From a virus: a stretch of 64,000 bases of DNA. Under the pieces are notes generated by a model, which was not told the DNA's origin, did not search any database, and worked only from the letters and a program-made list of their open reading frames with translations. The translations under genes and the position numbers were made by a program. The stretch spans positions 15,246-79,245 of IMG/VR virus record IMGVR_UViG_3300017991_000096. One strand, 5' to 3'. Positions 31,469-63,708 of this stretch are shown here, piece after piece (position 1 is the stretch's first letter; each line of letters opens with the position of its first letter).

Positions 31469-32358
31469 ACCCCATCGAATCGACCCTCACTCGCCTGGGT
31501 GCGAAGGACCTTCGCCCCACACCCGAGGGATTCGAGTCGCGCTGCCCCGTTTGCAAGAGCAAGCGGCGCAGCTTCCGAGTAGCCCACGTCGGCAAGAACG
31601 GTCGCGTGGGCGCTTTCTTCTGTCACCGCTGTGGAGTGACAGGCGATCTCGTGTCCCTGCTCATGCAAGCCTACAGGATGAGTCGGAGCGAAGCGGAGAG
31701 CACCGCTACCGACACCGCCGGATGGGTCAAGCACCATCGACCTGACATCCCTGACGACCCCATGGGCCCGTGGGAGATCGAGCCGTACCGTGAGGTGCTG
31801 TCCGACTACCTCGTGGGCCGCGGCTTCGACCCCGAGTGGATCTGGCACTACCGGATCGGGATGGACCTGTTCACGAACGAGGTGGTCATCCCCAACTACG
31901 ATGCGGAGGGCAAGCTGGTGGGCATCACCCGCCGCGTTGCCGAGGACGGGGCGCTCTACGTCCACTCGAAGTTCTCCAAGAGTGACCACGTCTGGGGCCT
32001 CGACCTTGTGCCCAAGGATGCGAAGATGGTTGCTATCGTAGAGGGCCAGCTTGACTGCCTCGGTCTGGCCCCTCACATGGACATCCCCGTGTGCTCAACC
32101 AACGGTTCGTGGATGAGCAAGGCGCAGGCCAAGCTACTCTCCAACTACCTCGTGGTGCTCGCCTACGACAACGACCGCGAGGGCATCAAAGGTACGCAGC
32201 GAGCGATCCGCTTACTTCGGGATGCTGGCTCGACCGAAACCAGGGTCCTATCTTATCCTACAGACGATCCGGGCGATCTCGCCCAGAACCCCAACCCCAA
32301 CCTAAGCCTAGTCACTTCGATACGGTGGCTAGCTACCCGGAACAGGAACACGGAATGA
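31465..32358 (+). CDS. DnaG-like primase (Zn-binding plus TOPRIM)
   Basis: CPVC...FFCHRCG..GD, YL..RG, VEGQLD, YDNDREG, DPGDL. Confidence 0.85.
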   Translation: MNPIESTLTRLGAKDLRPTPEGFESRCPVCKSKRRSFRVAHVGKNGRVGAFFCHRCGVTGDLVSLLMQAYRMSRSEAESTATDTAGWVKHHRPDIPDDPMGPWEIEPYREVLSDYLVGRGFDPEWIWHYRIGMDLFTNEVVIPNYDAEGKLVGITRRVAEDGALYVHSKFSKSDHVWGLDLVPKDAKMVAIVEGQLDCLGLAPHMDIPVCSTNGSWMSKAQAKLLSNYLVVLAYDNDREGIKGTQRAIRLLRDAGSTETRVLSYPTDDPGDLAQNPNPNLSLVTSIRWLATRNRNTE

Positions 32359-33641
32359 CACTCAGAGGAGTAAAGACTGCCAAGGCCGCCAAGGCTGCGG
32401 CGAAGGACCGCGGCTCTCGCGGTGGACGCTTCAACCGCCGAATCCAGGCCAAGACCGACGAGCCGTTCATCGGTCGCTTTCGCGGGCTGACCGAGCCCCC
32501 GACGCGCGTCTGGGAGGAGGGCGAGTTGAACAAGCTCGACACTGACGACTTGGTGGAGATCTGTAGCGAGATCCAGGCGGTGTTCAAGGAGGACATGGAG
32601 AAGTCCGAACTCGTTGACGCCATCCTCGACCGCTACAAGAGTCTGGAGCCGGCGTTGAACGCACGCCACTACGTCGATCGCAACAAGGGTCGCAAGGGCG
32701 CCTTCACCTACATGAACTGCGGAGACTCCGAGGCGGCTGTGCTTGGTGACATCCGTACCAAGACGGACTGCGAGATCTGCAAGGCCAGGCTCAGCGGTGA
32801 CAAGGGCGTCGGCTGGCCGCAGACGACCAACTGGTTCTCGTTCTATGACTACCGCAAGGTCCACCGCATCCCGAGCGGCGACGAGGAGAAGGACGAGTAC
32901 GTGCCCTGCACGATGGAGGAGAAGGGCCACTGCAAGCAGTGCTCTCGCAACAAGAAGATCCTCGACCGCGAAGGCATGGACGAGGGCGACTTGAAGTTCG
33001 AGGACAACGACGCCTTCAACGAGTGGTGTGCCAAGACCGGCTATGCGCGGACCTACGCCAACGGTATGCGCATGTTCAACCTTGCCAACAAGTTCGCTGA
33101 TCTCGTGCTGGACCTCTCGGCTCGCATCAGCCGACACTGCCGATCCTGCGGCACCGGCAAGGTGAAGCCCACGGGCGCGTGCTGCCCCCACTGCGGGGAG
33201 GAGTACGACTGGGACGAACTCATCGAGGCAGGGTGGAATCCCGAGGAGATGCAGAACGTCGAATGTCCAGAGTGCGGCGAGGAGGGCGTGCCCGAGCCCA
33301 TGTACGAGTGCTCCAACTGCGACGACGCCAAGCCGGCGCGGCTGTGCGACGTGGACGTGCGGTGCGTGATGACGGGCGAGGGCACGAGCAAGAACTGGAC
33401 GTTCACGGAGCAGTTGCCTGTGCGACCCCTCGACTACACGGACGAGGAGGACGCGGTGATCCTGAGCACGCCCCTCCCCGACTACGACCGCGAACTGGCG
33501 CCCCCGAGTGTGGAGGAGCAACTCAAGTTCATTGGCAAGGCACCCGCTCGCGGCCCGACCCCTTCCGCCCCCGTCGTCGGCGGCAAGAAAAAGAAGAAGG
33601 GTGGCAAGGGCGGGAAGGGCATGTTCTCGAAACGAGGCTGA
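32355..33641 (+). CDS. multi-Zn-ribbon protein, possibly ssDNA-binding (gp32-like position)
   Basis: At least six CxxC pairs, an HeH-like insert and a Lys-rich tail; lies between primase and polymerase. Confidence 0.5.
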   Translation: MTLRGVKTAKAAKAAAKDRGSRGGRFNRRIQAKTDEPFIGRFRGLTEPPTRVWEEGELNKLDTDDLVEICSEIQAVFKEDMEKSELVDAILDRYKSLEPALNARHYVDRNKGRKGAFTYMNCGDSEAAVLGDIRTKTDCEICKARLSGDKGVGWPQTTNWFSFYDYRKVHRIPSGDEEKDEYVPCTMEEKGHCKQCSRNKKILDREGMDEGDLKFEDNDAFNEWCAKTGYARTYANGMRMFNLANKFADLVLDLSARISRHCRSCGTGKVKPTGACCPHCGEEYDWDELIEAGWNPEEMQNVECPECGEEGVPEPMYECSNCDDAKPARLCDVDVRCVMTGEGTSKNWTFTEQLPVRPLDYTDEEDAVILSTPLPDYDRELAPPSVEEQLKFIGKAPARGPTPSAPVVGGKKKKKGGKGGKGMFSKRG

Positions 33642-36067: not shown

Positions 36068-36278
36068 GCGCATCATCATCGCCCTGTACTGGGAGTTCTG
36101 CCAGGACGAGGATGACTTCATGCAGTCTGTCGCCGTGGCGCACTTCGACGGCAACACCGCTGACGACGTTGTGGTCGCCCTCCTCGACCAGACCTTCGAG
36201 GGCACCGGCAAGAAGGCAGTCCGCATCCAGCGGACCCGGATCGGAAGGGGGCGGCCCCATGCCACGCAAGTCCGATAA
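36045..36278 (+). CDS. hypothetical protein
   Basis: GGAGG RBS; overlaps both neighbours; 77 aa. Confidence 0.5.
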   Translation: MGWKRTAKRIIIALYWEFCQDEDDFMQSVAVAHFDGNTADDVVVALLDQTFEGTGKKAVRIQRTRIGRGRPHATQVR

Positions 36279-37548
36279 GCCGAAGCTGAAAGGCGGCAAG
36301 CAGAAAGGTAAGGCTAAGGCCAAGCCTGACGCGAAGCTGGCGAAGGTCCGCGACATCGCCAACACCATCAACAAGAAGCTGGGTGGGAAGGGCACCGTGC
36401 TCGTGGGCGCGGACATCGAGGAGCTAGAGTTCCAGAAGGTCCGTACCAACAACCCAGCCATCGACTACGTGACGAACGGCGGCATCATCCGTGGTCGCAT
36501 CACGCAGTTCTGGGGCCCAGAGGGCTGCGCCAAGACGACGAGCCTAGCCGCGGTGATTCGACACTTCCAGAGCCTTGGACTCGTCTGCGGCTTCGCTCCC
36601 GTCGAGGGCTTCGACAAGGGGTGGTGGCGCAACGTCGGCGTGTTCATCCCCTACGGCTCCAAGGAGTTGGAGCGCATGGACAAGGCCAAGCGGAGGCAGG
36701 CAGAGCGGTACAACCTGTTCTACCAGGACGCAGGGTACTCGCCCCTCGTGCTCGTCCAGCACCGGGCAGGCGACGAGGTGCTCCAGATGATCTACGACCT
36801 GACGAAGTCCAACGCCTTCGACTTCCTGGGGCTCGACTCGCTCGGTGCCATCACGTCGTCCCGCATCCTAGACGACAAGGACGTGAGCGACCCGTCCGAG
36901 TATGGCGGTGAGGCCAAGCTGTTCAACACCTTCCAGCGCTTCATGCAGTCGGCGTTCAACACCTACTACGACGACGATGGCAACGCCGACGCCAGTGGCC
37001 GCAACCTGAATCAAACCATGGTTGTCGCCATCAATCAGGCTCGTGTGGCGATCGGTGTACGAGCCATGCGCCGCGAAAAGCAGTTCTACCCGACCGGCGG
37101 GCAGGGGCTCAAACACTTCTGGTCCCAGAGCGTGTTCTTCGACCACATCGCGTCCGACGAGCAGAGCGACACGGTGTCCTACGACGGGCACCAGCGGCGG
37201 GACGTGTACGCCAAGACTTTCAGGGTCTTCGGCCACAAGATGCGCGGCGGGCCTCCCGACCGCGACGCCAGGTTCACCCTTCATGTCAAGAACCACACGC
37301 ACGACGGACAGTCGTGGCGTGCAGGGCAGATCGACACCGTCAGCACGGTGCGAGCGCTGGGCGTCATGCTCGGCGTCATCGACAGATCGGGCGCTCACTA
37401 CAGCTACGGTGGCACCCGCATTCACGGCAAGGCGAACTTTGACGCAGCCCTTTGGAACGACCCCAGCCTCTACCAAGAGGTCTACGACGCAGTCATCGAC
37501 AAGGCGATCGAACAGAGCGGTGCGCACAGCGTACCGGGCACGGAGTAA
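36259..37548 (+). CDS. recA: RecA-like recombinase with Lys-rich N-terminus
   Basis: GGIIRGRITQFWGPEGCAKTT, LDSLGA, INQAR, PTGGQGLKHF, I.RSGA.YSY. Confidence 0.9.
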   Translation: MPRKSDKPKLKGGKQKGKAKAKPDAKLAKVRDIANTINKKLGGKGTVLVGADIEELEFQKVRTNNPAIDYVTNGGIIRGRITQFWGPEGCAKTTSLAAVIRHFQSLGLVCGFAPVEGFDKGWWRNVGVFIPYGSKELERMDKAKRRQAERYNLFYQDAGYSPLVLVQHRAGDEVLQMIYDLTKSNAFDFLGLDSLGAITSSRILDDKDVSDPSEYGGEAKLFNTFQRFMQSAFNTYYDDDGNADASGRNLNQTMVVAINQARVAIGVRAMRREKQFYPTGGQGLKHFWSQSVFFDHIASDEQSDTVSYDGHQRRDVYAKTFRVFGHKMRGGPPDRDARFTLHVKNHTHDGQSWRAGQIDTVSTVRALGVMLGVIDRSGAHYSYGGTRIHGKANFDAALWNDPSLYQEVYDAVIDKAIEQSGAHSVPGTE

Positions 37549-42355: not shown

Positions 42356-42904
42356 ATGACGGATGCGAACTACACCCTGATCTTCACCCGCCGGTTTGAG
42401 GCGGCGCATCGGTTTCTCATGGCCGACGCCCCGCGCTGCCGCAGCATCCACGGGCACACATGGTCGATCACTGCCAGGATCCACCACCGTCTCGAAGTGC
42501 AGCCGCCCCTGTACCCGTCCTCCATGGTGGCCGAGTTCTCCAAGACGAAGAAGGCATGGCACCGTTGGGTGGATCAACACCTCGACCACACGCTCATGCT
42601 CAACGAATCGGACCCGCTCATCTGGTGGTTCCAATCCAACGCGCCCTACCAGCGCCTCGTGACCTGCCCAGGTGACCCGACGACTGAGCTACTGGCTGCG
42701 CTGCTGCTCTGCAAGGTCAACGCCTTCCTGAGAGCCAGCGACGAGGACGGTCTGATGTGCCACGAGCTCCAGATCCAAGAGACGCCCACGAACGCGGTGA
42801 GCATCATCTGCCCCTGGGTTCCTGCGGGCCTCGACAAGACCGACGCCGTCTGGTGGAACCGCGCCGACGACAGCACGCACGATCTCGCCAAGTCTGATGA
42901 CTGA
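42356..42904 (+). CDS. queD: 6-carboxytetrahydropterin synthase
   Basis: FEAAHR...C..IHGHTW, LDH, PTTE, ETP. Confidence 0.9.
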
Positions 42905-43646
42905 CCTACGCATCGTCAAAGACGGTCTGTTTGAGACTGTCCAGGGAGAGGGGTTCCTCGCTGGCACCCCCTCCCTGTTCCTTCGCACTGCCGGCTGCAA
43001 CCTTCGATGCGCGTGGTGTGACACGCCCGAGAGCCTGCCCGACTACGATCTGCGGCTCCGGGTCTTTCAGCCCAAGCCCACGTTCAACGCCATCGAGGTG
43101 GATACTGAGATGCTGAGCCTCGCCATCGAGGCATCCATCGGCAGGGGTTTCCACCACGTCGTCGTGACCGGCGGAGAGCCGACACTACAGCAGGGTGCTC
43201 TGCTGCGTCTGTTCGGGCCCCTGCGGAAGCACGGGCACATGCACGTCACCATGGAGACGAACTGCGAGGTGCCTCCGAGCCCCGAGCTACGTCAGGTCGT
43301 GGACCTTGCCAGCCTCAGCCCGAAGCTGCATCGGTGGAAAACCACACAAGGAGCCGAGCGCATCGTCAGCGCCTACGAGGAGTGGGCTGCCATCCAGCAC
43401 GTACAACTCAAGGTCGTCGCCGGCAGCATCGAGGAGGTTCGCAACGCCGTCGAACTGATCCGCGCACTCCGTAAGGTTGGGCGTATCAAGCCCATCTGGG
43501 CCGCTGTCCAGCTAGAGGACTCATGGGTCGAGAAGGGCGCGTTCTTCGACGCGGACGAAGAGGTCGTGCGCAGCATATCCAGCTACCTCGGACGGCACAA
43601 CATCCGTCTGGTCGTCCAACAGCACAAGGTGATGAGGATTCTCTGA
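42897..43646 (+). CDS. queE: 7-carboxy-7-deazaguanine synthase (radical SAM)
   Basis: [37 protein letters not shown]. Confidence 0.92.
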
Positions 43647-44290
43647 TGGCACGTACAGGTAGACCACCCATCCCGCCCGAGGAGAAGGCGCAGCGCAAGA
43701 TCGAGGAGTACATGGGCAAGGTCATCGACCTGCTCATGGAACTGGGCAACGTGAGCGAGGAGGAGCGCGAGTTCCTCGACCTGACCGAGACGCCTCGCCG
43801 CGTGGCGAAGATGTGGGTCCGAGAGACGCTCAGCTACCCGGATCAGCCAGAGGTCCACCTGACCGAGATGGACAAGGAAGGCGACGTGGTGTGCCTTGGC
43901 CCCATCGGCTTCGCCTCGACGTGCGCGCACCATCTCATGCCCTTCACGGGTCACGTCTGGATCGCCTACCTGGCCGACACGAAGTTGCTCGGGCTATCGA
44001 AGTTCACTCGCATCGTCAAGGCCCATAGCAAGCGGCTGCACCTGCAAGAGAAGTTGACCAGAGACGTTCTGGACACGCTGGTGGAGCATCTGGAGCCTCG
44101 CGCCATGCTCGTGGTCATGCGGGCTGGGCACGGCTGCGTGGCTTGTCGGGGCGTAGAGGATGCGACCCAGCGCACGGTGACGGCTGCCGTCCACCTGCCC
44201 GACAGTGATATAGTGAACAACGGCCGCCTGACCGAAGAACTGTACCGAGTCGTGGGCATGGCGGGCGGCCCGTCTGTCGCTTCTTACTAA
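43646..44290 (+). CDS. folE: GTP cyclohydrolase I
   Basis: TPRRVAKMW, STCAHHLMPF.G, GLSK..RIV, LQEKLT, H.C...RGV. Confidence 0.92.
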   Translation: MARTGRPPIPPEEKAQRKIEEYMGKVIDLLMELGNVSEEEREFLDLTETPRRVAKMWVRETLSYPDQPEVHLTEMDKEGDVVCLGPIGFASTCAHHLMPFTGHVWIAYLADTKLLGLSKFTRIVKAHSKRLHLQEKLTRDVLDTLVEHLEPRAMLVVMRAGHGCVACRGVEDATQRTVTAAVHLPDSDIVNNGRLTEELYRVVGMAGGPSVASY

Positions 44291-44330: not shown

Positions 44331-44374
44331 GGCTATCCACGAGGAGCGCCGCGCTCTCGCCCCACCTTCAACCA

Positions 44375-44409
44375 GGGGTCCTCAGCGAAAGTGCTGAGGG
44401 CCTCTTTTT
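44375..44409 (+). terminator. intrinsic terminator or attenuator
   Basis: GGGGTCCTCAGC-GAAAGT-GCTGAGGGCCTC followed by T5. Confidence 0.7.
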
Positions 44410-44427: not shown

Positions 44428-44961
44428 GTGGCAAAGAACGACCAAATCAACATCACCCTGTCCAAGTCCGCCCTTCTCGCCCGAGCCAAGGAGTTGCGCC
44501 AGCAAGCCAACGACGCCATCGGGCTCGCCGTCAGGCTGGAGGAGTGGGCCCAGAAGGGCAAGGCAGCCGAGCCCGAGGCTAAGGCCAAGGGTAAGAAAAC
44601 CAAGGGCTCGAAGGGCAAGCCGGCCAAGGCACCCGAGCCGGAAGTGACCACCCCCGAAGGTGGCTACAGCCCCGACGATCTCAAGGGCATGGCCCGCAAG
44701 GAGTTGGCCGCCGTCTACAAGGCTCTCGGTGGCGACCCGAAGGGCCTGCTCATGCCCGACCTTCGCACCCGCATCATGGAGGCCCAGGAGAGCGGTGGCT
44801 ACGAGCGCTCCGACGCCGAGGAGTGCGACATCACTGGCGAGGAAGGCCCTACGTGGTCTGTCGAGCACGACGGTGAGACGTGGAGCGTGGGCGCCGACAT
44901 CATCGAAGCACTCAAGGATGGTCACGCCATGGCGGACCTGATCGAGAACGGCGGCGTCTAG
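44428..44961 (+). CDS. Lys-rich protein with Rho-N/HeH-like motif
   Basis: AGGAG RBS with GTG start; DDLKGMARKELAAVYKALGG..KGL..PDLRTRIMEAQ. Confidence 0.65.
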   Translation: MAKNDQINITLSKSALLARAKELRQQANDAIGLAVRLEEWAQKGKAAEPEAKAKGKKTKGSKGKPAKAPEPEVTTPEGGYSPDDLKGMARKELAAVYKALGGDPKGLLMPDLRTRIMEAQESGGYERSDAEECDITGEEGPTWSVEHDGETWSVGADIIEALKDGHAMADLIENGGV

Positions 44962-45023: not shown

Positions 45024-45053
45024 TTGACAGGGCCGGCATACTATGATAGTATG
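45024..45053 (+). promoter_or_regulatory. sigma70-like promoter with palindromic operator
   Basis: TTGACA-N17-TAGTAT (extended TGn); perfect palindrome CATACTAT-G-ATAGTATG at 45037-45053. Confidence 0.7.
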
Positions 45054-45108
45054 TTGCCCCTCTCGAAAAACGCCCCAAACGGGGCTAGGAAGGCAAAAGA
45101 GTAGAACA

Positions 45109-45957
45109 ATGAGTCAAGCAGCACAGCTACGCGACGCCATCAGGGAAGGCAATCAGCCCTTGGTGTCCGCCATTCACGATCTGATCGCCCACATGAAGAA
45201 CGGGGTCAACGGCAAGGCGCACAGCACTGTCGAGCGCCCCGCCTGGAAGCCCAACGAGTGCGACGCCGAGTGCGAACTCACCGGCTGGCCTGTCCCCTCC
45301 GCGTCCCTGGAGGACGTGGACGGGTGGCAGCTTCACCCCGGAGCGGCGCGCTACCTCCGAGAGCACGGGCACAAGCCCGAGGAGGAGCCCGAGGTCCCCG
45401 AGAAGTACAACAGCATCCCGCGGATCCTCGTCCCCGCGGCCAAGGCCAAGAAGGGTGCCAAGCTGCGCTGGGAGTTGGAGGATCTCCCGCACATGACCCG
45501 GCCCGAGCTATACATGGCGGCGGCCGACGTGTCCCTCAACAAGCAGGCCAAGGCGGTCGGCATCGACTACCGCATGGAGAAGTCGGAATGGCTCGTCGCT
45601 GCCATCGCCAGCGTCCACCAGGGCAACGGGGTGCCTGCGCCCGCGGATGAGCGGAACATCGGCCGGTACAAGCCCGACGACGCGCTGCCTGCCGAGCCGA
45701 AGGCCGAGGAGGTCGCCAAGCCGAAGAAGGGCAAGCCGAAGAAGGCGGCCAAGAAGTCGAAGCCGGCTCTGTCGCCCAAGGCAGAGAAGGCCAAGGCCAA
45801 CATCGAGGGTCTGCCTGACGGGCAGTTCAGGGCCCTGCAAGCCATCAACGCTGGCGAGAGTGCCCGCAAGCGCGATGTCGAGCGGCTCATGGAGAAGGGT
45901 CTGCTCACCAGCACTGGCAAGGTGCCGAAGCACGTTGCGGAGGCGTTGGGGGCGTAG
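45109..45957 (+). CDS. Lys-rich protein with HeH-like motif and possible C-terminal winged helix
   Basis: EDLPHMTRPELY..A; KPKKGKPKKAAKKSK; GQFRALQAI...VERLMEKGLL. Confidence 0.6.
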   Translation: MSQAAQLRDAIREGNQPLVSAIHDLIAHMKNGVNGKAHSTVERPAWKPNECDAECELTGWPVPSASLEDVDGWQLHPGAARYLREHGHKPEEEPEVPEKYNSIPRILVPAAKAKKGAKLRWELEDLPHMTRPELYMAAADVSLNKQAKAVGIDYRMEKSEWLVAAIASVHQGNGVPAPADERNIGRYKPDDALPAEPKAEEVAKPKKGKPKKAAKKSKPALSPKAEKAKANIEGLPDGQFRALQAINAGESARKRDVERLMEKGLLTSTGKVPKHVAEALGA

Positions 45958-45960
45958 ATA

Positions 45961-46290
45961 GTGGCGCTCAAAGGGAAGCCGAAGCCAGGCAAGCGTCCTG
46001 GTATGAAGGGTAAGCCCAAGCCGAAGCGCAAGGGCAACCCCAAAGGCAAGTCCAAGCCACCTACACCGAAGCGGGCCGAGCCCGTGGATAAGCCTTGGCA
46101 CGACAACGCGGACGAGTACATCAAGTCCCTTCTCGCCAAGGCGACACTAGAGGAGCTATCCGCCCTGGAGTACGTGATTCAGGACCGGAGCGCTCTGGAC
46201 CCTCGCAGGGGTCGCAACCGCATCACATGGCACATCGTCACAACGCAGATCGCAAGGGAGCAAGTCAAGCGTGACCCCTTCCAAACGTGA
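45961..46290 (+). CDS. small basic protein (K/G/P-rich N-terminus)
   Basis: MALKGKPKPGKRPGMKGKPKPKRKGNPKGKSK. Confidence 0.55.
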   Translation: MALKGKPKPGKRPGMKGKPKPKRKGNPKGKSKPPTPKRAEPVDKPWHDNADEYIKSLLAKATLEELSALEYVIQDRSALDPRRGRNRITWHIVTTQIAREQVKRDPFQT

Positions 46291-47062: not shown

Positions 47063-47574
47063 AAACGGCACTCACGGTTTTCGGCGTCGCCCGTGACATC
47101 TACGGGCGCGAGTGGGAGGAGCATCGCCTGTTCTTCTATGACGACCAGGCGCTTGGTCCCAACCCCATCACCCGCTATTCCCCCATCCGGGGGATGATGC
47201 GGATCGCCAAGCGAGGTACTGACCTTGCTATGCCCTACGTCCGCCTCGTGGCAGCACTGGGTCCGAAGGGCAAGGACATTCCCGTTCGCAAGTTGTATAG
47301 CTTTGTGAACGCCTACGGCGACAGCGTCGATGTCTACAAGGTGGACGGCTACGAGGTCCACGACGTTGGCAACGGCCACAACCGCCAAATGTTCATTCAC
47401 GACCGCGATGGTGGCGTCGCGGGCTACTACTACTCCGCCGATCACCAGGCGGTCTACGAAGCACTCGACCGGGCTTGCAGCGCCCTGGTTCGCGTAGAAG
47501 ATGATCTGATCGCTGCGTTCCTGGCCCATGCGGCCGAAGTCATCAACCTCAACACCAACAGCAACAACGAGTAG
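47059..47574 (+). CDS. hypothetical protein
   Basis: ATGA coupling; 171 aa. Confidence 0.55.
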   Translation: MKTALTVFGVARDIYGREWEEHRLFFYDDQALGPNPITRYSPIRGMMRIAKRGTDLAMPYVRLVAALGPKGKDIPVRKLYSFVNAYGDSVDVYKVDGYEVHDVGNGHNRQMFIHDRDGGVAGYYYSADHQAVYEALDRACSALVRVEDDLIAAFLAHAAEVINLNTNSNNE

Positions 47575-47584
47575 GAAACACATC

Positions 47585-48562
47585 ATGGCAAATCTGAGTG
47601 AGAAGAAGATCAAGGGGATGTCCGCTGCCGAAGTGCGCCAGGCGTGCAAGAAGGCCGGTATCGAAACCAAGGGCAAGAAGCTGCCGCAGTTGCGCGAGGC
47701 GCTGATCGCTGCACAGGGCGAGGGCGAGAAGTCGAGCAAGAAGCCCGGCAAGAAGAAGGCCCCGCCGAAGGCCGAGGCAGCCGCCAAGGGTGGGGGCAAG
47801 GGCAAGAAGTCGAAGGGCAAGAGCAAGGCCGAGCCCGAGCCCGAGCCCGAGCCCGAGGAGCAGACCGAGTCCGTCGATCTGGAGGCTCTGGAGAAGTCCG
47901 TGTTCGACAAGATCATCGCCGTGCTGACCCCGAAGATGCGCGACATCGAGAAGCGGGTGAAGGCGCTGGAGGAGTCCTCGACCGATGCGCCCGACGACGA
48001 CGCCGACGACGGGGGCGATGATGCACCCGCCGAGATCCCCGAGAGCCTGAGCGAGTTCGTGGACGAGGACGGCGATCTCAACCTCGACCCCGACGACGTG
48101 GACGGCATGAAGGGTAAGACCCTCAACGACCTGGCCGCCGTGCTGGGCGTCGAGTTCCCCGACGACGCCAAGAACGTCCGCGCCAAGCGGTCGTTCCTCA
48201 AGGAGACGCTGGAGGAGCGCAACGGGGGCGATGACGAGGACGAAGGTGGGGAGGATGAGGATGAGGATGAGGATGAGGATGAGGAGGACATCGAACTGAT
48301 CGAAGGTCCTGACGGGGAGACGGCGCAGAAGTGCAACGACTACTCCGACGTGTCCGTCGAGGACGAGGTCTACATCGCCACTGACGGCGAGTGGTTCCGC
48401 GGCACCGTCGTGAGCAGGGACAAGGACGACGACGGCGACGAGTACATCCACGTCAAGTGCGACGACGGCGACGACGCCCACGTCTACGCTCCCGAGGTCA
48501 ACGACGACCCCGTGATCGTGGGCTGGACCTACGACGAGGAGGACGAGGACGAGGACGAGTAG
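47585..48562 (+). CDS. bipartite basic/acidic protein with two HeH-like motifs and a Tudor/SH3-like C-terminal barrel
   Basis: IKGMSAAEVRQACKKAGI..KGKK..QLREALI; Lys-rich linker; (EP)n; (DE)n; VYIATDGEWFRGTVV...YIHVKCDDGD. Confidence 0.65.
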   Translation: MANLSEKKIKGMSAAEVRQACKKAGIETKGKKLPQLREALIAAQGEGEKSSKKPGKKKAPPKAEAAAKGGGKGKKSKGKSKAEPEPEPEPEEQTESVDLEALEKSVFDKIIAVLTPKMRDIEKRVKALEESSTDAPDDDADDGGDDAPAEIPESLSEFVDEDGDLNLDPDDVDGMKGKTLNDLAAVLGVEFPDDAKNVRAKRSFLKETLEERNGGDDEDEGGEDEDEDEDEDEEDIELIEGPDGETAQKCNDYSDVSVEDEVYIATDGEWFRGTVVSRDKDDDGDEYIHVKCDDGDDAHVYAPEVNDDPVIVGWTYDEEDEDEDE

Positions 48563-49135: not shown

Positions 49136-49402
49136 ATGGACGGAACTACGAAAGTAACCGAACTGAATCTCAACCGACCTGACCCCGAGGTCATCGCTTC
49201 GCTCAAGCAAGCCTTGGCCGATGCGGAGAGCGGGAGACTGCAAGGGTTCGTTCTTGTCGGGTCACTCCTTGGGGGCAGATCGCTCTCTCTCCGCGAGGGC
49301 TCGATCAACAGGCCCGAGGTCGTGGCCTTCGCTGCCCGCATCCAGCACGAGGCTATGATGGAGTGGACTGAGGACGCCGTTGACGAGGAGGAGGACGACT
49401 AG
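49136..49402 (+). CDS. hypothetical protein
   Basis: GGGAG RBS; VIASLKQALADAESGRLQGFVLVG pattern seen in small phage proteins. Confidence 0.55.
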   Translation: MDGTTKVTELNLNRPDPEVIASLKQALADAESGRLQGFVLVGSLLGGRSLSLREGSINRPEVVAFAARIQHEAMMEWTEDAVDEEEDD

Positions 49403-50115
49403 TGCCCGTCACTCTGGAGTTCGCGCCCTTCATGGGGCCCGAGCCCAACGACCTGTCAGACGTGGAGCGGCTCGGTCCCTCGATCTTCCGCTTCCCTGTC
49501 TGGACCCCGGTGGCCTGCGAGGGCTTCATCGACGTGCTGGAGTCTCCGATGCACCGTGGCTGCTGGGCTACGCCCGAGACGGCGGAGAAGGTGGCGGCGC
49601 TGCCCGAGGTCAAGGCAGCGTTCCCCAGCGACTTCGACATCGTGGAGCTAATCCAACGCAGGAAGGTGCGGGAGTTTCCGCTCTACACCATCGAAGGCTT
49701 CAAGGAGGCGTGGGAGTCCTACTCCCTCGACCACATCATCCCCATCCTCGACAGGCTATGGGGTCGTAACCATACCAAGGTCATCGCGCCGTTCGTGTTC
49801 TGCTACCAGCGGCGGAAGGGCCTCAAGTCGCATCTTAGTGACCACTACGATGCGTTCAACACGTTCGTCCTGCCGCTGTCGAGTCCCATGGACTACGAAG
49901 GTGGCGGCACCTACATCCCAGACCTCGACCTGACCATCGAGGACGAACAGGGTCACGCGCATGTGTTCCCTGGCCTCACTCACTACGTCGCTCCCGGTCG
50001 TGACGCCCTCGAAGATGAGGACGACCAGGAGGTCACTCTCCACCCTGAACTGTGGCACCGTACCCATGCACTCAAGCGTGGTAAGCGGTACTGCCTGATC
50101 GGATTCTACGCATGA
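49402..50115 (+). CDS. 2OG-Fe(II) oxygenase, PLOD/P4Hc-like
   Basis: IFRFPVWTP..C, FVFCY, HYD, DYEGGGT, FPG.TH, H......GKRY.LIGF (HxD...H triad and 2OG-binding Arg). Confidence 0.75.
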   Translation: MPVTLEFAPFMGPEPNDLSDVERLGPSIFRFPVWTPVACEGFIDVLESPMHRGCWATPETAEKVAALPEVKAAFPSDFDIVELIQRRKVREFPLYTIEGFKEAWESYSLDHIIPILDRLWGRNHTKVIAPFVFCYQRRKGLKSHLSDHYDAFNTFVLPLSSPMDYEGGGTYIPDLDLTIEDEQGHAHVFPGLTHYVAPGRDALEDEDDQEVTLHPELWHRTHALKRGKRYCLIGFYA

Positions 50116-50774
50116 TTCTCAACAAACGAAGCTCATGGTCCTACTTCGCACCTGGCGTCTTCCAGCGGAAGGTGATGACGCCCAAGCAGTGCGACAACCT
50201 CCTCGACTACTGCATCAGCAACGCGAACGGCTGGATCGGTCCTGAGAACGCGGAGGACATCCACGGATGCCCGAGGGTCTTGTCGGGCTATCCTGACTAC
50301 TTCTCGCCCGAGGACGTGGAGTGGGCCATTCGCAACTACAAGAGGTTCCGCGAGTTCCCCACGGAGAACATGGCGCCCCAGCTACAGCTAGCCATGCTGA
50401 GGTTCGCTGAGGAACTCATGCCCAGTGTTGCTGCCATCCATGGTATCGACCTGCGCCGGCCCCTCGATCCGTTCGTCGCCTGCTATGAGGCGCGAGAGGG
50501 TCACAACGCTTTCCTGTCGCCCCACGTAGACAAGCAACGGGCGGCTGTGGTCGTGCAACTGAACAGCCCCAGGGACTACCAGGGCGGCGGCACCCGGTAC
50601 ACGAATCTCGGCGTGACCGCGCCAGAGAAGGTCGGCATGGGCGTGACGCACACGGGGGCCAAGGCATACGAGGCCGACCCGGAGGAGGCCGAGGAGTTGT
50701 ACCCCCACCTTGTCCACGAGGCGCTGGAGGTCACCGAGGGCGCTCGGTACACCCTCTGCCTGTTCTACCTGTAG
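50112..50774 (+). CDS. 2OG-Fe(II) oxygenase, PLOD/P4Hc-like (paralogue of the upstream gene)
   Basis: FVACY, LSPHVD, DYQGGGTRY, HEALEVTEGARY.L..F. Confidence 0.8.
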   Translation: MILNKRSSWSYFAPGVFQRKVMTPKQCDNLLDYCISNANGWIGPENAEDIHGCPRVLSGYPDYFSPEDVEWAIRNYKRFREFPTENMAPQLQLAMLRFAEELMPSVAAIHGIDLRRPLDPFVACYEAREGHNAFLSPHVDKQRAAVVVQLNSPRDYQGGGTRYTNLGVTAPEKVGMGVTHTGAKAYEADPEEAEELYPHLVHEALEVTEGARYTLCLFYL

Positions 50775-50784
50775 GGGGCCGACG

Positions 50785-52971
50785 ATGATTCTGTACCTCG
50801 CAGGTGGCGAGACGTGGTGGCGATACTTCGACCGCTACGGCATCCGAAACGTGCTGCTGTCGTATCACTACCTGCGAGGTCAGACGGACTTCGCCGAGAT
50901 GGTGGCGTGGATGGAGCGGAGCAAGGCGGAGAAGCAGCCCCGAAGGTTCTTCCTCGACTCCGGTGCGTTCACCTACATGCACGGCGGCCACGACACGCTC
51001 GAAGATCTGAACGAGTACGCCGACGAGTACATCCGCTTCCTGAACACGGACCCAGCCGTCAAGCTGTTCGACGTGGTGGCTGAACTCGACGTGTACCAGC
51101 AGATCGGGGACGAGTCTGAGGACGACGTGTATCGAAGGGTCCAACGTCACCAGGAGAAGATCTACGAGGCGGTAGGTGACAAGATCCTGCCTACCTACCA
51201 GACGGACTGGCTGACGCTCAAGGACTGGGAGAAGGTCTGCGCTGATCCTCGTTTCAAGCAGGTGGGCATCGGCTCGTCGGGCGAGAGCGGCAGCGCTCAG
51301 TTCATCTCGCTGCACAAGAAGCTGATCGCCATCGCCCACAGGCATGGAAAGGTCATCCATGGTTTCGGCCAGACGCGGCTGCAAACCGACATGAAGTACC
51401 TCCGCAACTACGACTCCGTGGACTCGACCACCTGGCTGCGCGCGGATAAGTACGGAGGTACGTTCATCTACCAGAACGGGCACCTGCGCATCCTCAACCA
51501 CGAGCAGAAAGAGCGGCGCGCATGGTTCAAGGGTTACTTCAAGCGCATCGGCCTCGACCCTGAGCGCATCCTAGGAACCCACAAGGACCACGCCCCGCAC
51601 TGCGACGGTCCCAACAGCCAAACCAAGGACTGCGAAGCCTGCAAGGATCAGTTGGAGGAGCTTCGAGCGTCGAGCCTCATCGCTTGGCGGGAGCTTGCCA
51701 AGAAGTTCGAGCGCACTGGTCAACGCCTCGTACAGCATCGGTCCACGCGCACGCTTGACGTTCAACAAACCCAAGGAGTCACCATGACACCAGGACCCAA
51801 GCTGGGTCGAAAGAAGGGCTGGAAGGGCCCACCCGGCACCAAACCCACCTACGATGACTTTGGGGGCAAGAAGTGCCCTCACTACCGGCGGCGCCCAAGA
51901 GAGGTGGCTCGAAACCTCAACTGCTCAGCCTGCCACAACCTCCCGATCTGCCAGGAAGTAGAACGCCATGAGTACCAAGCCCTCCTCGATGACCACACCG
52001 CAACTACTCACCCGGAGATGGGTGCTCCTGATCCACGGCAAGATGGCGACGGAGGAGTTCCGTTCGCTGACGCTGGAACTACTCAAGCGGCAGGCACCGG
52101 AACCTGGAGCGCGGGAACAAGTGATGGCGGAGAGACGAGCACGCCAGATAGCAGCACTGGCGGAGGCCAAGGCGAGAGCAACCGAAGCGCGCGAGAAGGG
52201 TCGGCTGTAGCTCCCGATACCACTACGGGAAGCACTACCCCAGAGGGGGAGGGGGGCGGGAGGTCCTTGGATTCTCGTGAATCCCCCCTAGAAGACTCCA
52301 ACTCCCCACTACAGTCTCAGGATTCTCGTGAATCCTCCCCAAATCCCCCCAATCCTCCACCAGTTTCTCCGAACGGTGCCCCACCTCCGCATAGTCCTCA
52401 GTCATCCCTTGTCCCCACGTCAGCCCTACGGCGTAGAGACAACAGGGAGCTACTGACAACAGGGGGTCTGAACCTGGGTGCCTGGAGACGGGATATCCCA
52501 CGCAACCACTGCGACGTGTGCAACCTGGCGGATGAGTGCCCCAAGTACCAACCCGCATCCGTCTGCGCCTACAACGAGGTCTTCGACCAGTTCGACACGC
52601 GCAACAGCGACGACGTGATGGCGCTACAGCAGGCCCTCGTGGAAGTGGATAAGGACCGGACCATGGCGGCGATTCTCCAAGAGAGGTTGACCACGGGCGG
52701 GCAGATCGATCCCCGCGTGACGCAGCAGATGAACAGCTTTCAGAACCGCATACAGGTGCTTGACGAGATGATGCAGGCACGGAACGCACCACGACCAAGC
52801 GGATTCAACGTCCAGGTCCAGGTCCCTAGTCCTAGCGCACCAGATGGGCGCCCAGGAGTCCTCTCGATGCTCTTTGGCTCAGCCCCGGCTCAGTCCCATG
52901 GGGAACCCACGGAGAAAGAGGAGGAGGGTCAAGGTGCGGTCATCGACACCACTGCAACAGGGCCAGAGTGA
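50785..52971 (+). CDS. TGT/DpdA-like guanine transglycosylase with long C-terminal extension
   Basis: N-terminal ~310 aa: LLSYHY, FFLDSGAFT, ELD, IHGFG, DSVDSTTW; then a low-complexity linker, a C-x2-C-x5-C-x8-C cluster and a helical domain. Confidence 0.75.
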   Translation: MILYLAGGETWWRYFDRYGIRNVLLSYHYLRGQTDFAEMVAWMERSKAEKQPRRFFLDSGAFTYMHGGHDTLEDLNEYADEYIRFLNTDPAVKLFDVVAELDVYQQIGDESEDDVYRRVQRHQEKIYEAVGDKILPTYQTDWLTLKDWEKVCADPRFKQVGIGSSGESGSAQFISLHKKLIAIAHRHGKVIHGFGQTRLQTDMKYLRNYDSVDSTTWLRADKYGGTFIYQNGHLRILNHEQKERRAWFKGYFKRIGLDPERILGTHKDHAPHCDGPNSQTKDCEACKDQLEELRASSLIAWRELAKKFERTGQRLVQHRSTRTLDVQQTQGVTMTPGPKLGRKKGWKGPPGTKPTYDDFGGKKCPHYRRRPREVARNLNCSACHNLPICQEVERHEYQALLDDHTATTHPEMGAPDPRQDGDGGVPFADAGTTQAAGTGTWSAGTSDGGETSTPDSSTGGGQGESNRSAREGSAVAPDTTTGSTTPEGEGGGRSLDSRESPLEDSNSPLQSQDSRESSPNPPNPPPVSPNGAPPPHSPQSSLVPTSALRRRDNRELLTTGGLNLGAWRRDIPRNHCDVCNLADECPKYQPASVCAYNEVFDQFDTRNSDDVMALQQALVEVDKDRTMAAILQERLTTGGQIDPRVTQQMNSFQNRIQVLDEMMQARNAPRPSGFNVQVQVPSPSAPDGRPGVLSMLFGSAPAQSHGEPTEKEEEGQGAVIDTTATGPE
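51968..52210 (+). CDS. nested out-of-frame ORF inside the DpdA-like gene
   Basis: 80 aa, protein-like and helical, exactly where the host frame is low-complexity G/S/T. Confidence 0.35.
   Translation: MSTKPSSMTTPQLLTRRWVLLIHGKMATEEFRSLTLELLKRQAPEPGAREQVMAERRARQIAALAEAKARATEAREKGRL
52269..52335. repeat. two copies of quasi-palindrome GGATTC-TCGT-GAATCC, 51 bp apart
   Basis: Copies at 52269-52284 and 52320-52335. Confidence 0.85.
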
Positions 52972-53120: not shown

Positions 53121-53897
53121 ATGCCCATCATCGTCAGTGTGAAGAACATCGTGGTAGACGAGGGACCGCCGGCTGTTGTGCGCTACCAGCTAGAGGTGGC
53201 GGACACCGTGAGCGACGCGGAGTACCAGACGGACATCGACATCACGCCGGCCGTGCCTTTGGCGTTCCCGAACTACGGGGTGGCGATCTTCGAGGTGGAG
53301 GAGGGCGTGGACTGGGATCCGTTCGACGCGGCGTTGTTGGCTGCGGGTTGGGAGAACCTGAACACGGGGGAGCCGATTGGGGGGTTCATCGAGCGTGTTT
53401 ACGCGGGCCCGTACACGACGGGTTTCTTCAACACGACCGTGACCATCGAGGAGGCGGAAACTGGGGCTACGCTGGTGCTGACTGGCTCTGTCGCTGCGAC
53501 GACGCCCCAAGCTGCGTTGCTCGTGACGCGGGAGAGGTTGTGTTCGGGGCTGTTCACGGCTTCCGCGTCTCCACCCGAGCCGGTGCTTCCCGTGACGATC
53601 ACCGAGTTCGTACCTCCGGTCATCACCGACCCCATCGACGGGCCGCCTGCGACCGTGTCCGTGCAGGGGTCGGGCTTCACTTCGATCTCGGGCGTCGCGG
53701 AGATTCGGTTTGAAGCGGAGGACCCTGATGGCGGGCTCATCACTGCTACCTGGCCGCTCACGGTGCTGGACGACAGCAACGCTGAGTTCGACTGGGCCGA
53801 TCCGTGGCCTGACGCCATCTGGAACGTGACGGTGCTGGAGGACTCTGTCCCCGTGTCGTCTGTGCTGGTCGGCGGCTTCCAAACCCAGCTATCCTAG
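53121..53897 (+). CDS. acidic Ig/IPT-like protein (possible virion decoration)
   Basis: AAGGAG RBS; PPVIT....PPATVSVQGSGF IPT/TIG-like motif. Confidence 0.55.
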   Translation: MPIIVSVKNIVVDEGPPAVVRYQLEVADTVSDAEYQTDIDITPAVPLAFPNYGVAIFEVEEGVDWDPFDAALLAAGWENLNTGEPIGGFIERVYAGPYTTGFFNTTVTIEEAETGATLVLTGSVAATTPQAALLVTRERLCSGLFTASASPPEPVLPVTITEFVPPVITDPIDGPPATVSVQGSGFTSISGVAEIRFEAEDPDGGLITATWPLTVLDDSNAEFDWADPWPDAIWNVTVLEDSVPVSSVLVGGFQTQLS

Positions 53898-53957
53898 CCA
53901 TACCTACGGCATACATACGAGACAGATTCGGTGGGGGCCTGATAGGCTTTGCCTACC

Positions 53958-54593
53958 ATGCGCAACCATGCCGAGTTCTGTGTCTACGACAACTTTTTCA
54001 CCGCCGCGGAGTGCAACCGTCTCGTCAGATGGGCACTCCGCGACGGGTTCCGTGAACCGGAGGACATCACGGGCTATCGAAGCCCTGGGTATCCCATGCC
54101 AGAGCTACGCGAGCGCGTGGCTGATGCTTTCGGTTTGTACCCCGACCCGAATACGTGGCTCGACGATCCCGAGGAGATGCACAACAACGGGAACGGGGTC
54201 GTCTACTTCGGGCTCTCGGAGGGGCCGAAGGCTGAGGTGTGTGGCGTTCACTGGGACGAGCCCGTGGAGCGCTACACCATGCTGGTGTACCTCGTGGACG
54301 GGCCTGCTGACGCGGGCACGGGGTGGTATCGGCACAAGCCAACCGGGCTCGTGCGCGCGCCGATCTCCGCGGACGCGCGGCGGCTCAAGACGACGGTGGA
54401 GAGCCTTCGGGAACAGGTCTACCGCGACTCCCAGAAGCCGGGACAGTGGGACGTGCTCGCCACCGCTGGGCTCGTGAAGGGCCGCGCCGTCCTGTACCCG
54501 AGTGACATCCTGCATCGCGCCTGCCAGCACTTCGGTGACCGCCCGGAAAACGGCAGGCTCTACTACACCCTGCGGTTCTACAAGGAGGACTGA
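53958..54593 (+). CDS. 2OG-Fe(II) oxygenase-like protein (DUF6445-like)
   Basis: VYDNFF, VHWD, LVYL, GT.WYRHK.TG, RAVLYPS..LH.....FG.....GRL. Confidence 0.7.
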   Translation: MRNHAEFCVYDNFFTAAECNRLVRWALRDGFREPEDITGYRSPGYPMPELRERVADAFGLYPDPNTWLDDPEEMHNNGNGVVYFGLSEGPKAEVCGVHWDEPVERYTMLVYLVDGPADAGTGWYRHKPTGLVRAPISADARRLKTTVESLREQVYRDSQKPGQWDVLATAGLVKGRAVLYPSDILHRACQHFGDRPENGRLYYTLRFYKED

Positions 54594-55134: not shown

Positions 55135-55773
55135 ATGGGTAGCGCTCCAGCGACGCAAGCCAACCTGACACCCCTTCCAGTGGTCAGACAGGGGCTCGTC
55201 TGGTGGCAGAAACAACGGATGTACCCGGACCCGCGGCGCATCCTCGACCCTGCCGCGGGCTCTGGTGCGTTCGGCGTCGTGCTGCGCGAGCTATTCCCGC
55301 GCGCGCACATCACCGCGATGGAAGCGAGGGTGGAGGAGCACGGGCATCTCCGCTCGATCTACGATGAGGTGCTGGGCTCGTTTCCCGAAAACCTGCCCGA
55401 CGACGCGCCGCCCTTCCGCCCCTACGATCTCGTGGTGACGAACCCGCCGTTCGTGCTGTGGGAGGACTACGTGGAGTTCAGCCTCGACTACGTCACGCAG
55501 GGAGGTGACGTGCTCATGCTCGGACTGAACGACTGGGGCCAGCGGAACATGAGCACGGGGTACGATTTCTTCCGCACGTACACCCCGGTGTACCAGGCTC
55601 GGATCTCTGGATCGCTCGGTTTCCGTGGACCTGGCGAGAGCGCGGACACGAGGTGCTACTCGTGGTGGCTGTGGAGGGAGGGGAGCAGCATCAGCCCGAC
55701 GCAGTGGCTCACGACGACCCTGCCACCGCTCGACAGCGACGGCAGGAGGTGGACGACCCCACCGGGGCGGTGA
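55135..55773 (+). CDS. amino-methyltransferase, probable N6-adenine DNA MTase
   Basis: Motif I ILDPAAGSGAF precedes motif IV DLVVTNPPF. Confidence 0.8.
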   Translation: MGSAPATQANLTPLPVVRQGLVWWQKQRMYPDPRRILDPAAGSGAFGVVLRELFPRAHITAMEARVEEHGHLRSIYDEVLGSFPENLPDDAPPFRPYDLVVTNPPFVLWEDYVEFSLDYVTQGGDVLMLGLNDWGQRNMSTGYDFFRTYTPVYQARISGSLGFRGPGESADTRCYSWWLWREGSSISPTQWLTTTLPPLDSDGRRWTTPPGR

Positions 55774-55786
55774 CATCCGCCATTCG

Positions 55787-55813
55787 ACCGGCCCATGCGG
55801 CCGGTTTTCTTTT
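55787..55813 (+). terminator. intrinsic terminator
   Basis: ACCGGCC-CATGC-GGCCGGT followed by TTTCTTTT. Confidence 0.75.
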
Positions 55814-55966: not shown

Positions 55967-55995
55967 TTGACCTCCCATGGTATCCATACTACATT
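55967..55995 (+). promoter_or_regulatory. sigma70-like (probable early) promoter
   Basis: TTGACC-N17-TACATT with upstream AT tract TAAATAAAATAT in a GC-rich genome. Confidence 0.7.
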
Positions 55996-56075
55996 GTATA
56001 TCCCTTCGGGGCGCCTCGCAGGGCGGGGTCGGAAACTCAACCAACCAACAGAGAAAGTACCAAGGAGTAATCATC

Positions 56076-56678
56076 ATGGCCAAGAACACCAAGAAGTCCA
56101 CCGCCAAGTCCACCACCAAGAACGCCGGCAGCAAGAAGTCCACCAAGAAGTCCGCTCCCAAGAAGGTCACCGCGGCCAAGGGCGGTAAGAGCAAGGGCGG
56201 CAAGAGCGGCAAGAAGAAGGCGCCGCCCAAGGCGGGTGAGGCTGCCAAGCAGTTGAGCGGCGAGGCGTTCCGAAAGTGGAACCACGTCGCTGCCATGCAG
56301 GAGGTCTGGCCGAACGCCCAGCGCGGTCACGTCATCAACGTCCCCAGCGCCACGGTCGAGGGCCGCACCGACATCGCGGTTGTCCTCTACCCAAGCAACG
56401 CGGAGTCGGACGGGTCCGCACTCATCATCCGCAACAGCGGAAAGTACAGCGCCCAGAAGTCGGCCAAGCTGGCCGAGCAGTTCTCCAAGCTGGTCGGGAT
56501 GCTGGCCGACCCTGGCGACGACTGCGACGCGCACCAGAGTGAAGCCGGCGACTGGCTCCACTTCATCGACATGGTCGTCCCTCCCGCCGTCCAGCGGGTC
56601 CTCGACAACCAGACGGCGGCACCCGCCAAGAAGTCCAAGGCGAAGGCCAAGGGCAAGCGCGGCAAGAAGGCCGCCTAG
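56076..56678 (+). CDS. protein with histone H1-like K/S/T/A-rich tails at both ends
   Basis: AAGGAG RBS; MAKNTKKSTAKSTTK...KKSAPKKVTAAKGGKSKGGKSGKKK and C-terminal PAKKSKAKAKGKRGKKAA. Confidence 0.7.
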   Translation: MAKNTKKSTAKSTTKNAGSKKSTKKSAPKKVTAAKGGKSKGGKSGKKKAPPKAGEAAKQLSGEAFRKWNHVAAMQEVWPNAQRGHVINVPSATVEGRTDIAVVLYPSNAESDGSALIIRNSGKYSAQKSAKLAEQFSKLVGMLADPGDDCDAHQSEAGDWLHFIDMVVPPAVQRVLDNQTAAPAKKSKAKAKGKRGKKAA

Positions 56679-62703: not shown

Positions 62704-63055
62704 GCGAGCCGAGACGCGCCAGCAGGACGCGGCAGTCACCCGTGGCATCGAGCGGGTGGCTGCCATCTTCCCTCACGACACCGTGAGCATCGGTCCCCTC
62801 GCGGACCTTGCCAACGCCTACGCGACCATCGAGCGCAACCGGACGGCGGACACTGACCCCGACACGGGGATGGTGGCGCCGCAACCCATGACCCAGAGCG
62901 TCCTCCAGGGTGGAGCCGTTGACGGAAGCGTCGCGGACCTCCCGAGGCGCCCTGGGTCTTTTCGTCTCGACTTCGCCCACCGATGCAACGGTGACGAGCC
63001 CCTCTACGAGTGGAACGACAAGGACCAGAGATGGTATCCAAGGGAGCAAAGCTAG
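62645..63055 (+). CDS. hypothetical protein
   Basis: 136 aa; overlaps both neighbours. Confidence 0.5.
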   Translation: MKKPLTPRHWNELVESTRFERAETRQQDAAVTRGIERVAAIFPHDTVSIGPLADLANAYATIERNRTADTDPDTGMVAPQPMTQSVLQGGAVDGSVADLPRRPGSFRLDFAHRCNGDEPLYEWNDKDQRWYPREQS

Positions 63056-63708
63056 TATGCAGAGATGCCCTCGTCCTGCTGAGCGCAGGGCTCGACTCCA
63101 CGGTGACCCTTGCACTCGCGGATGCGATGGGCTTTCGCTGTGAGACGGTGACCTTCGACTACGGGCAAGCCAACCGCGTCGAGCTTGAGGTCGCTCGGCA
63201 CAACGCCGAGCGCTACGGCAGCCGGAAGCACCACGAGGTGACGCTGCCGACTGAGGCTTTCGCAGGGAAGGGCGCGGCAGGTGACGACGCTCGCAAGGGA
63301 TCGGGCTACGTCCCACTACGCAACGTGGTGTTCATGTCGTATGCCGCCGCGCTCGCAGAGGCTCACACCCTCCGGTATCTGTTCGTCGGCATCGTCTCGC
63401 TCGACGGGAGACGGCTTGGGCCTAAAGGTTTCAACGGCTTTGGCGATACGAGCTTAGAGTTCCTCACCGCGTTCTCTGACGTGCTCGAAGCAACCTGCAC
63501 GCACCCCACATCGGTGATGGCTCCGCTCGCGGATACGACCAAAGCCGGTGTCATCAAGCTGGCGCGGAAGCTGGGCGTGGACCCGGAGTTGACGATGTCG
63601 TGCTACCAGCCGGACGGCTACACCCCTTGCGGGGTCTGCCTCCCGTGCCAACAGCGAAAGTGGGCGTTTCGAGATCTCAAACGCGAGGAGCTAGAAGGTC
63701 TTGGATAG
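63031..63708 (+). CDS. queC: QueC-like 7-cyano-7-deazaguanine synthase (divergent)
   Basis: VLLSAGLDS (PP-loop), TFDYGQ...EL, YVPLRN.VF, APL...KA.VI, T.SCY, CG.C.PC..R. Confidence 0.85.
   Translation: MVSKGAKLVCRDALVLLSAGLDSTVTLALADAMGFRCETVTFDYGQANRVELEVARHNAERYGSRKHHEVTLPTEAFAGKGAAGDDARKGSGYVPLRNVVFMSYAAALAEAHTLRYLFVGIVSLDGRRLGPKGFNGFGDTSLEFLTAFSDVLEATCTHPTSVMAPLADTTKAGVIKLARKLGVDPELTMSCYQPDGYTPCGVCLPCQQRKWAFRDLKREELEGLG

Follow-up and report, generated by a model that had tools for sequence, protein, structure and literature searches.

A tandem pair of lysyl-hydroxylase-like dioxygenases in an uncultured phage and their candidate peptide substrates

Two adjacent genes of an uncultured, high-GC phage, referred to here as Ox1 and Ox2, encode proteins whose closest relatives by both profile and structure comparison are lysyl hydroxylase (LH) domains, clearly above other 2-oxoglutarate (2OG) oxygenase families. 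The genes lie in a stretch of 64,000 nucleotides (the window), which covers bases 15246-79245 of the 79,245-bp IMG/VR record IMGVR_UViG_3300017991_000096 (completeness estimate for the record 90%). It is almost certain that both genes are real, intact and LH-like. As for the substrate, a peptide of whatever origin is favoured by slightly better than even chances because of the fold neighbourhood, the acidity of the enzymes and the non-conserved linkage to the neighbouring DpdA gene. The explanation preferred here, peptidyl-lysine hydroxylation of a non-collagen protein target, is plausible and falls somewhat short of even chances, and the Lys/Gly-rich (K/G) tails of phage proteins as the specific target are a tentative and rather unlikely choice. 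What is said below on a peptide substrate, on lysine as the residue modified and on the acceptors is what we infer to be most likely.

49402..50115, + strand: Ox1, 237 aa, Fe(II)/2OG dioxygenase of the LH clade (Y135, H148, D150, H219, R229)
50112..50774, + strand: Ox2, 220 aa, paralogue of Ox1 (Y125, H138, D140, H202, R212)

The initial annotation, made by eye, had described a tandem pair of paralogous PLOD-like hydroxylases, and the two open reading frames (ORFs) are indeed found where it placed them, sharing 30% identity (E 2e-27). The start codon of Ox1 is a GTG overlapping the stop codon upstream, with a Shine-Dalgarno sequence (GGAGGAGGA) in front of it; this start is supported by conservation of the N-terminus in the orthologue P0002. 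Ox1 and Ox2 are translationally coupled, with an ATGA start/stop overlap. The GC content at third codon positions (GC3) is 0.81 for Ox1 and 0.84 for Ox2, resembling the rest of the genes (~0.8 in the window, where all credible genes are on the + strand). Both enzymes are single-domain and have the hallmarks of Fe(II)/2OG dioxygenases, namely the HxD...H iron triad, the Arg/Tyr for the 2OG C5 carboxylate and the double-stranded β-helix (DSBH) fold. The Tyr, HxD, His and Arg set is invariant in both copies and in every relative in the alignment, with a His-to-Arg spacing of 10 in Ox1 and Ox2, the same as in LH3. The full set of catalytic motifs read earlier is present in both proteins, except that the last one had been given the wrong spacing (it is H-x7-G-x-RY) and F.FP is only partial in Ox2.

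Among the family libraries, Pfam reports just a sub-threshold 2OG-FeII_Oxy_3 match in Ox2, PHROGs assigns Ox1 to a generic 2OG oxygenase family (phrog_61), and NCBIfam has no match for Ox1, Ox2 or DpdA. A single-sequence search with Ox1 returns the LH3 hydroxylase domain (E 5e-4) and mimivirus L230 (E 0.026). The profile built from seven phage-clade members only (A5) matches LH3 and L230 in the PDB with E-values of 6.5e-13 and 1.3e-11, respectively, followed by a bacterial prolyl 4-hydroxylase (P4H) at 4e-3. This match takes in the LH-specific N-terminal segment preceding the DSBH core (CPDVYWFP-L-x3-C) and covers L230 positions 56-212, and residues 15-54 of Ox1 align with LH3 chain positions 530-568. 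A further profile (A3) reached E 1e-54 against the PDB; it includes genuine PLOD-like sequences, and the result was discarded as circular.

According to structure comparison, the same enzymes come first. The AlphaFold2 model of Ox1, computed from a 50-row alignment, has a predicted local distance difference test (pLDDT) score of 88.1 and a predicted template modelling (pTM) score of 0.85. In a Foldseek search of the PDB with this model, L230 and LH3 take all of the first 15 places (E 3e-13 to 3e-11), and the best match outside the LH group is a viral collagen P4H (E 2e-7). VIA-align, which is independent of Foldseek, gives Z 20.5 for L230 (root-mean-square deviation 2.0 Å over 169 residues) and 20.3 for LH3 (2.6 Å over 194 residues). 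The values for OGFOD1 and an algal P4H are both 14.4, and the comparison with AlkB and TET that had been suggested for the pair yields 12.2 for ALKBH6 and 10.7 for NgTET1. In the viral structure library BFVD, the top match to Ox1 is a Megavirus procollagen-lysine dioxygenase. Since profile, Foldseek, VIA-align and BFVD results agree on LH, the PLOD-like assignment made by eye is correct and robust. The characterised near structural neighbours are peptide hydroxylases in every case. TET/JBP and AlkB enzymes share the general DSBH fold and the cofactors with Ox1 and Ox2, and TET enzymes of phages are involved in DNA hypermodification, but the structural similarity is much weaker (Z 10-12) and comes without a sequence-level match.

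LH3/PLOD3 (PDB 6fxk, 8zgc) has in common with the phage proteins the DSBH fold, the Tyr/HxD/His/Arg set, the N-terminal segment and the DY-GGG and PG-LTHY motifs. In comparison with it, Ox1 has ~20% identity, lacks glycosyltransferase and accessory domains, carries an additional acidic insertion and has a dimer-pocket Tyr replaced; moreover, no collagen was found in the phage genome as read. The LH domain of Mimivirus L230 (PDB 6ax6, 9nev) is the best structural match and is itself viral. L230, however, is part of a fusion with a glycosyltransferase, and collagens are encoded by its virus, whereas Ox1 and Ox2 stand alone. In vitro, L230 is active on short K-G peptides such as its assay peptide ETGLKGII (PMC5802723).

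Both enzymes are acidic, with isoelectric points (pI) of 5.2 for Ox1 and 5.4 for Ox2. The acidic insertion of Ox1 (23 aa, residues 196-218, 8 D/E of 23) is located exactly between the LTHY strand and the distal His, and is absent in LH and in other stand-alone relatives. No other internal segment of the model is of low confidence; pLDDT is <50 at residues 203-212 of the insertion. An acidic insertion is common to Ox1, Ox2, P0002, P0003 and P0005, being shorter in Ox2 (~14 residues). The complex prediction for Ox1 with Ox2 scored 0.00 and was used as evidence neither way.

The Ox1/Ox2 clade is extremely rare. Among 1.84 billion cluster representatives, HMMER recovers 6 proteins at E <=1e-10, both queries included, and the relatives are all singletons on contigs of 1.5-3 kb. 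Weaker HMMER matches belong to 2OG-FeII_Oxy_3, OGFOD2-like, and GT25- or PLOD-GT-fused proteins. No relatives were found in IMG/VR, JGI metagenome contigs, GTDB genomes or GenBank phages (the last by tblastn). As a side observation, P0005 (401 aa, on a 2.8-kb ENA contig), the nearest of the more distant clade members, has a 160-aa C-terminal extension; by eye it looked SET-like, an idea that was dropped after no match appeared in Pfam (E up to 1) or the PDB.

To our knowledge, LH-fold lysyl hydroxylases are only collagen modifiers, in animals and giant viruses. Conventional collagen-type lysyl hydroxylases, with a fibre substrate encoded in an unseen part of the genome or by the host, are one alternative reading of the pair. 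A six-frame scan of the 79-kb record, however, reveals no gene resembling a collagen: among real ORFs, (GXY)5 occurs just once, at 284-328, and the PF01391 (Collagen) profile has no match in the record. The genome was lengthened by 6.2 kb via an overlapping metagenome contig (L083, 99.2% identical), so that ~85.4 kb were read altogether, and no collagen repeat occurs in this extension either. Contigs of 88.7-88.8 kb encode an identical protein, which implies ~3 kb beyond the sequence read and leaves some room for a fibre gene. As for a glycosyltransferase partner, none was found by a GT2 profile scan of the record, which is an insensitive search, and none turned up in Pfam/PHROG scans of ~60 ORFs, the extension included. 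Negative family-profile scans are weak here because a PF13640 search of the phage's own record missed Ox2. A tail module of baseplate type already lies inside the window, and Ox1 and Ox2 are placed among early and DNA-metabolism genes, away from the fibre genes. A collagen-type substrate is thus very improbable, and an intact LH-like pair with neither collagen nor glycosyltransferase implies a different acceptor.

Candidate acceptors for a lysyl hydroxylase are abundant in the same genome. X-Lys-Gly is the LH acceptor motif, and the tails of the phage proteins contain many such sites. The K/G tracts listed in the initial annotation are all present, and they are non-random: 12-aa windows with >=9 K/G occur in 6 proteins, whereas 500 within-protein shuffles gave 0.85 such proteins on average and never more than 2. 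Lys-rich low-complexity tails are found in 8 window proteins. The tracts are as follows.

44554..44637, + strand: K/G-rich tract KGKKTKGSKGKP..., candidate acceptor, in a 177-aa protein (44428-44961)
45709..45795, + strand: Lys-rich tract KPKKGKPKKAAKKSKP in a 304-aa protein (45043-45957)
45970..46062, + strand: N-terminal KGKP-type tract in a 109-aa protein (45961-46290)
47717..47842, + strand: K/G tract KGGGKGKKSKGKSK in a 344-aa protein (47528-48562)
56118..56240, + strand: K/G tract KGGKSKGGKSGKKK in a basic 233-aa protein (55977-56678)
63870..64000, + strand: (GK)9 and KA/KG tail of a small protein cut by the contig end
33564..33632, + strand: C-terminal tail GGKKKKKGGKGGKG of a Cys-rich protein (32091-33641)
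36277..36336, + strand: N-terminal tail KLKGGKQKGKAKAK of the RecA homologue

The basic 233-aa protein has a further Lys-rich tail at its C-terminus. The (GK)n protein is complete on L083 (569-817), where it has 82 aa and (GK)8; the difference from the (GK)9 of the window (63810-64000) is a repeat-length polymorphism between samples. The 344-aa protein also has a SAP-like motif (E 1e-3), a weak Agenet/Tudor-like C-terminus (E 0.02-0.17) and long Asp/Glu runs (99 D+E, pI 4.3). Two more Lys-rich proteins are encoded in the head-gene region (genome bases 1358-1843 and 2222-3193). Each has a Lys content of 16% and contains 7 K-G dipeptides, and they could be basic proteins that are packaged.

Five of the K/G-tract proteins share a transcription unit with Ox1 and Ox2. 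The unit is bounded by two terminator-like hairpins and contains the proteins starting at 44428, 45043, 45961, 47528 and 46604 (the last with a short Lys-rich N-terminus), then Ox1, Ox2, DpdA, an acidic 258-aa protein, a DUF6445 oxygenase and an NPPF methyltransferase.

44374..44405, + strand: strong terminator-like hairpin, upstream boundary of the Ox1/Ox2 transcription unit
50785..52971, + strand: DpdA-like DNA transglycosylase (phrog_887, E 9e-39) with a long C-terminal extension
53949..54593, + strand: third oxygenase, DUF6445 (Pfam match above threshold; H101, D103, H189, R203)
55135..55773, + strand: NPPF-motif amino-methyltransferase with a DNA-methyltransferase PHROG match
55786..55806, + strand: strong terminator-like hairpin that closes the unit

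The position of DpdA raises the question of a DNA substrate. Its ATG lies 10 nt downstream of the Ox2 stop, and the phage encodes a full preQ0 pathway, with QueD at 42356, QueE at 42897, FolE at 43523 and QueC at 63010 (window 42356-44290 and 63010-63708). No QueF, ArcS or Gat domain was detected, and the predicted DNA base is therefore dPreQ0. Ox1 and Ox2 might further oxidise the 7-deazaguanine base and so create a new hypermodified DNA base, perhaps jointly with the DUF6445 oxygenase and the NPPF methyltransferase downstream in the same unit; the oxidation could take place before or after DpdA inserts the base. Among the close structural neighbours, however, there is no nucleic-acid oxygenase (Z 10-12 for AlkB/TET against 20 for LH), and acidic enzymes such as Ox1 and Ox2 also speak against such a role. 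The deazaguanine genes are spread over 21 kb, with QueD, QueE and FolE together and QueC 19 kb away, so the Ox2-DpdA adjacency may be incidental.

The linkage was assessed with a 27-relative alignment of DpdA, which gave 80 viral loci with flanks of up to 10 kb (1.31 Mb in total). None of these loci has a match (E <=1e-3) to the hidden Markov models (HMMs) of the LH/P4H-like set, the phage clade or DUF6445, whereas the same three HMMs recover all three oxygenases of the phage's own genome. Because the 80 related loci hold no such oxygenase, the DpdA-oxygenase adjacency is not conserved. Two key papers on the 7-deazaguanines of phages contain no mention of an oxygenase, a broader search of the literature revealed no link with 2OG oxygenases, and no paper connecting hydroxylysine with bacteriophages was found either.

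As for the other two enzymes of the unit, the DUF6445 oxygenase keeps H101, D103, H189 and R203 invariant in 12 homologues. Its model (pLDDT 84) weakly resembles the small-molecule enzymes HygX, SnoN, WelO5 and EctD and shows no resemblance to TET or AlkB. The NPPF methyltransferase has, besides its DNA-methyltransferase match, weak and far sub-threshold matches to models of ribosomal L3 and release-factor N5-glutamine methyltransferases. It is thus ambiguous between a DNA and a protein target and favours neither reading of the substrate. Oxidation of a 7-deazaguanine base is, on the whole, improbable.

The target may also be some other protein of host or phage, unconnected with the K/G tails, or a small molecule; this is possible, though on the unlikely side. 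Uncharacterised P4H-, LH- and OGFOD-like 2OG oxygenases are numerous in marine phages; moreover, bacterial P4H acts on EF-Tu and OGFOD1 on uS12, and a translation factor or a ribosomal protein is accordingly conceivable as a target of this kind. P4H-EF-Tu and OGFOD1 are among the next-best structural matches to Ox1, although the LH match exceeds P4H and OGFOD1 by 6 Z units. The nearest Atlas clusters comprise viral families of the 2OG-FeII_Oxy_3 and OGFOD2-like types without a known function, and the BFVD neighbours include cyanophage and uncultured-phage oxygenases. The small-molecule-type fold of the DUF6445 oxygenase points in the same direction, but no metabolite pathway is evident beside the Ox1/Ox2 genes. 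Substrates are unknown, too, for the tandem 2OG-Fe(II) oxygenase arrays of cyanophages, which have been suggested to modify peptides (Iyer et al. 2010, PMC2938197). These arrays resemble Ox1/Ox2 in that several classical 2OG dioxygenases stand in tandem in a phage. They mix unrelated families, however, whereas Ox1 and Ox2 are recent paralogues, both of the LH clade, and come from a high-GC sediment phage.

Under peptidyl-lysine hydroxylation, the preferred explanation, Ox1 and Ox2 would be two co-translated Fe(II)/2OG dioxygenases, predicted to be catalytically competent, of a rare and divergent LH/PLOD branch in which the glycosyltransferase domains and the collagen substrate were lost or never present. 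Their targets would be lysine side chains in unstructured stretches of proteins other than collagen. The best candidate acceptors would be the X-Lys-Gly-rich basic tails of about ten phage proteins, several of them from the same transcription unit; the tailed candidates include RecA, the SAP-domain protein, small H1-like proteins and the 82-aa (GK)n protein. Candidate acceptor peptides would be sequences of the (GK)n or KGGKSKGGKSGK type. The clade-specific acidic loop before the distal His might act as a lid that attracts basic peptides.

A further step would be a chromatin-like system, in which hydroxylysine is written on the Lys-Gly tails of the phage's own DNA-binding or packaged proteins and alters their DNA binding, turnover or recognition. 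This version is unlikely, slightly more so than the tails as the target in general. If true, the LH fold would gain its first non-collagen substrate class, and bacterial viruses their first hydroxylysine 'tail mark'. With Lys-Gly tails as the acceptor, hydroxylysine chemistry would reach the DNA-associated proteins of a bacterial virus; with a 7-deazaguanine base, an oxidative step would be added to a DNA-modification pathway currently without one.

The phage-encoded peptide-modification system proposed in the initial annotation agrees with much of the above: the pair belongs to the LH clade, is intact and acidic, shares its unit with tailed proteins, has no detected collagen or glycosyltransferase beside it, and its adjacency to DpdA is not conserved. 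The part that is not supported is the tie to the tails. Neither direct nor comparative evidence was found that links the enzymes to the K/G tails, and since nothing connects them specifically, such a system is a proposal and not a finding.

Several further observations weigh against lysine hydroxylation of phage tails. Lys-rich tails are common on DNA-binding proteins whether or not a hydroxylase is present, and 2OG oxygenases often switch substrates. P0006 and P0007, which are more distant within the clade, have a pI of ~10 and are thus basic, so that the argument from acidic enzymes does not extend to the whole clade. By position, a DNA-modification module fits equally well, given that the two enzymes directly precede DpdA and share their unit with a third oxygenase and an amino-methyltransferase. 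About 3 kb of the genome are unseen. The LH dimer pocket also appears to be altered. In L230 the tail-to-tail homodimer is locked by L873, which inserts into an aromatic pocket of Y798, Y801 and Y831, and the LH dimer Leu sits four residues before the distal His (PMC5802723). According to the alignment, Ox1 keeps L192, W120 and F155 with Asn in place of the conserved Tyr, and its 23-aa insertion separates the dimer Leu from the distal His. In Ox2 the pocket does not appear to be kept, the four positions being occupied by Ala, His, Asp and Val.

The remaining observations concern the neighbouring genes and the phage as a whole. In the DpdA ORF, a DpdA domain of ~300 aa is fused to a ~430-aa extension with a Ser/Pro/Gly-rich linker, and the C-terminal part of the extension matches a small-terminase PHROG (phrog_6902, 4.5e-5). 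All DpdA homologues found (44/44) are stand-alone proteins of ~320 aa, and the GC3 of the phage ORF (0.72) is below that of its neighbours. The protein at 53121-53897, between DpdA and the DUF6445 oxygenase, is the very acidic one of 258 aa (pI 4.05, net charge -32) and has no family match. The PHROGs label 'minor coat protein' for the DUF6445 oxygenase family looks like a misnomer.

Ox1 and Ox2 belong to the DNA-metabolism region of the phage, whose replication and recombination genes include DnaB, primase, PolA, RecA and a Cas4-like exonuclease. No close phage relatives were found in GenBank phages or IMG/VR with queries that included DpdA and PolA. None of the listed sequencing runs in which DNA of this phage occurs is an RNA dataset. 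Matching phage DNA is present in both sediment and seawater metagenomes. On L083, an 88-aa protein (L083:903-1169) has a sub-threshold match to the Prp cysteine protease (E 2.5e-4) and is directly followed by a 601-aa ORF (L083:1169-2971) without a Pfam family match. The same extension also carries structural-looking ORFs.

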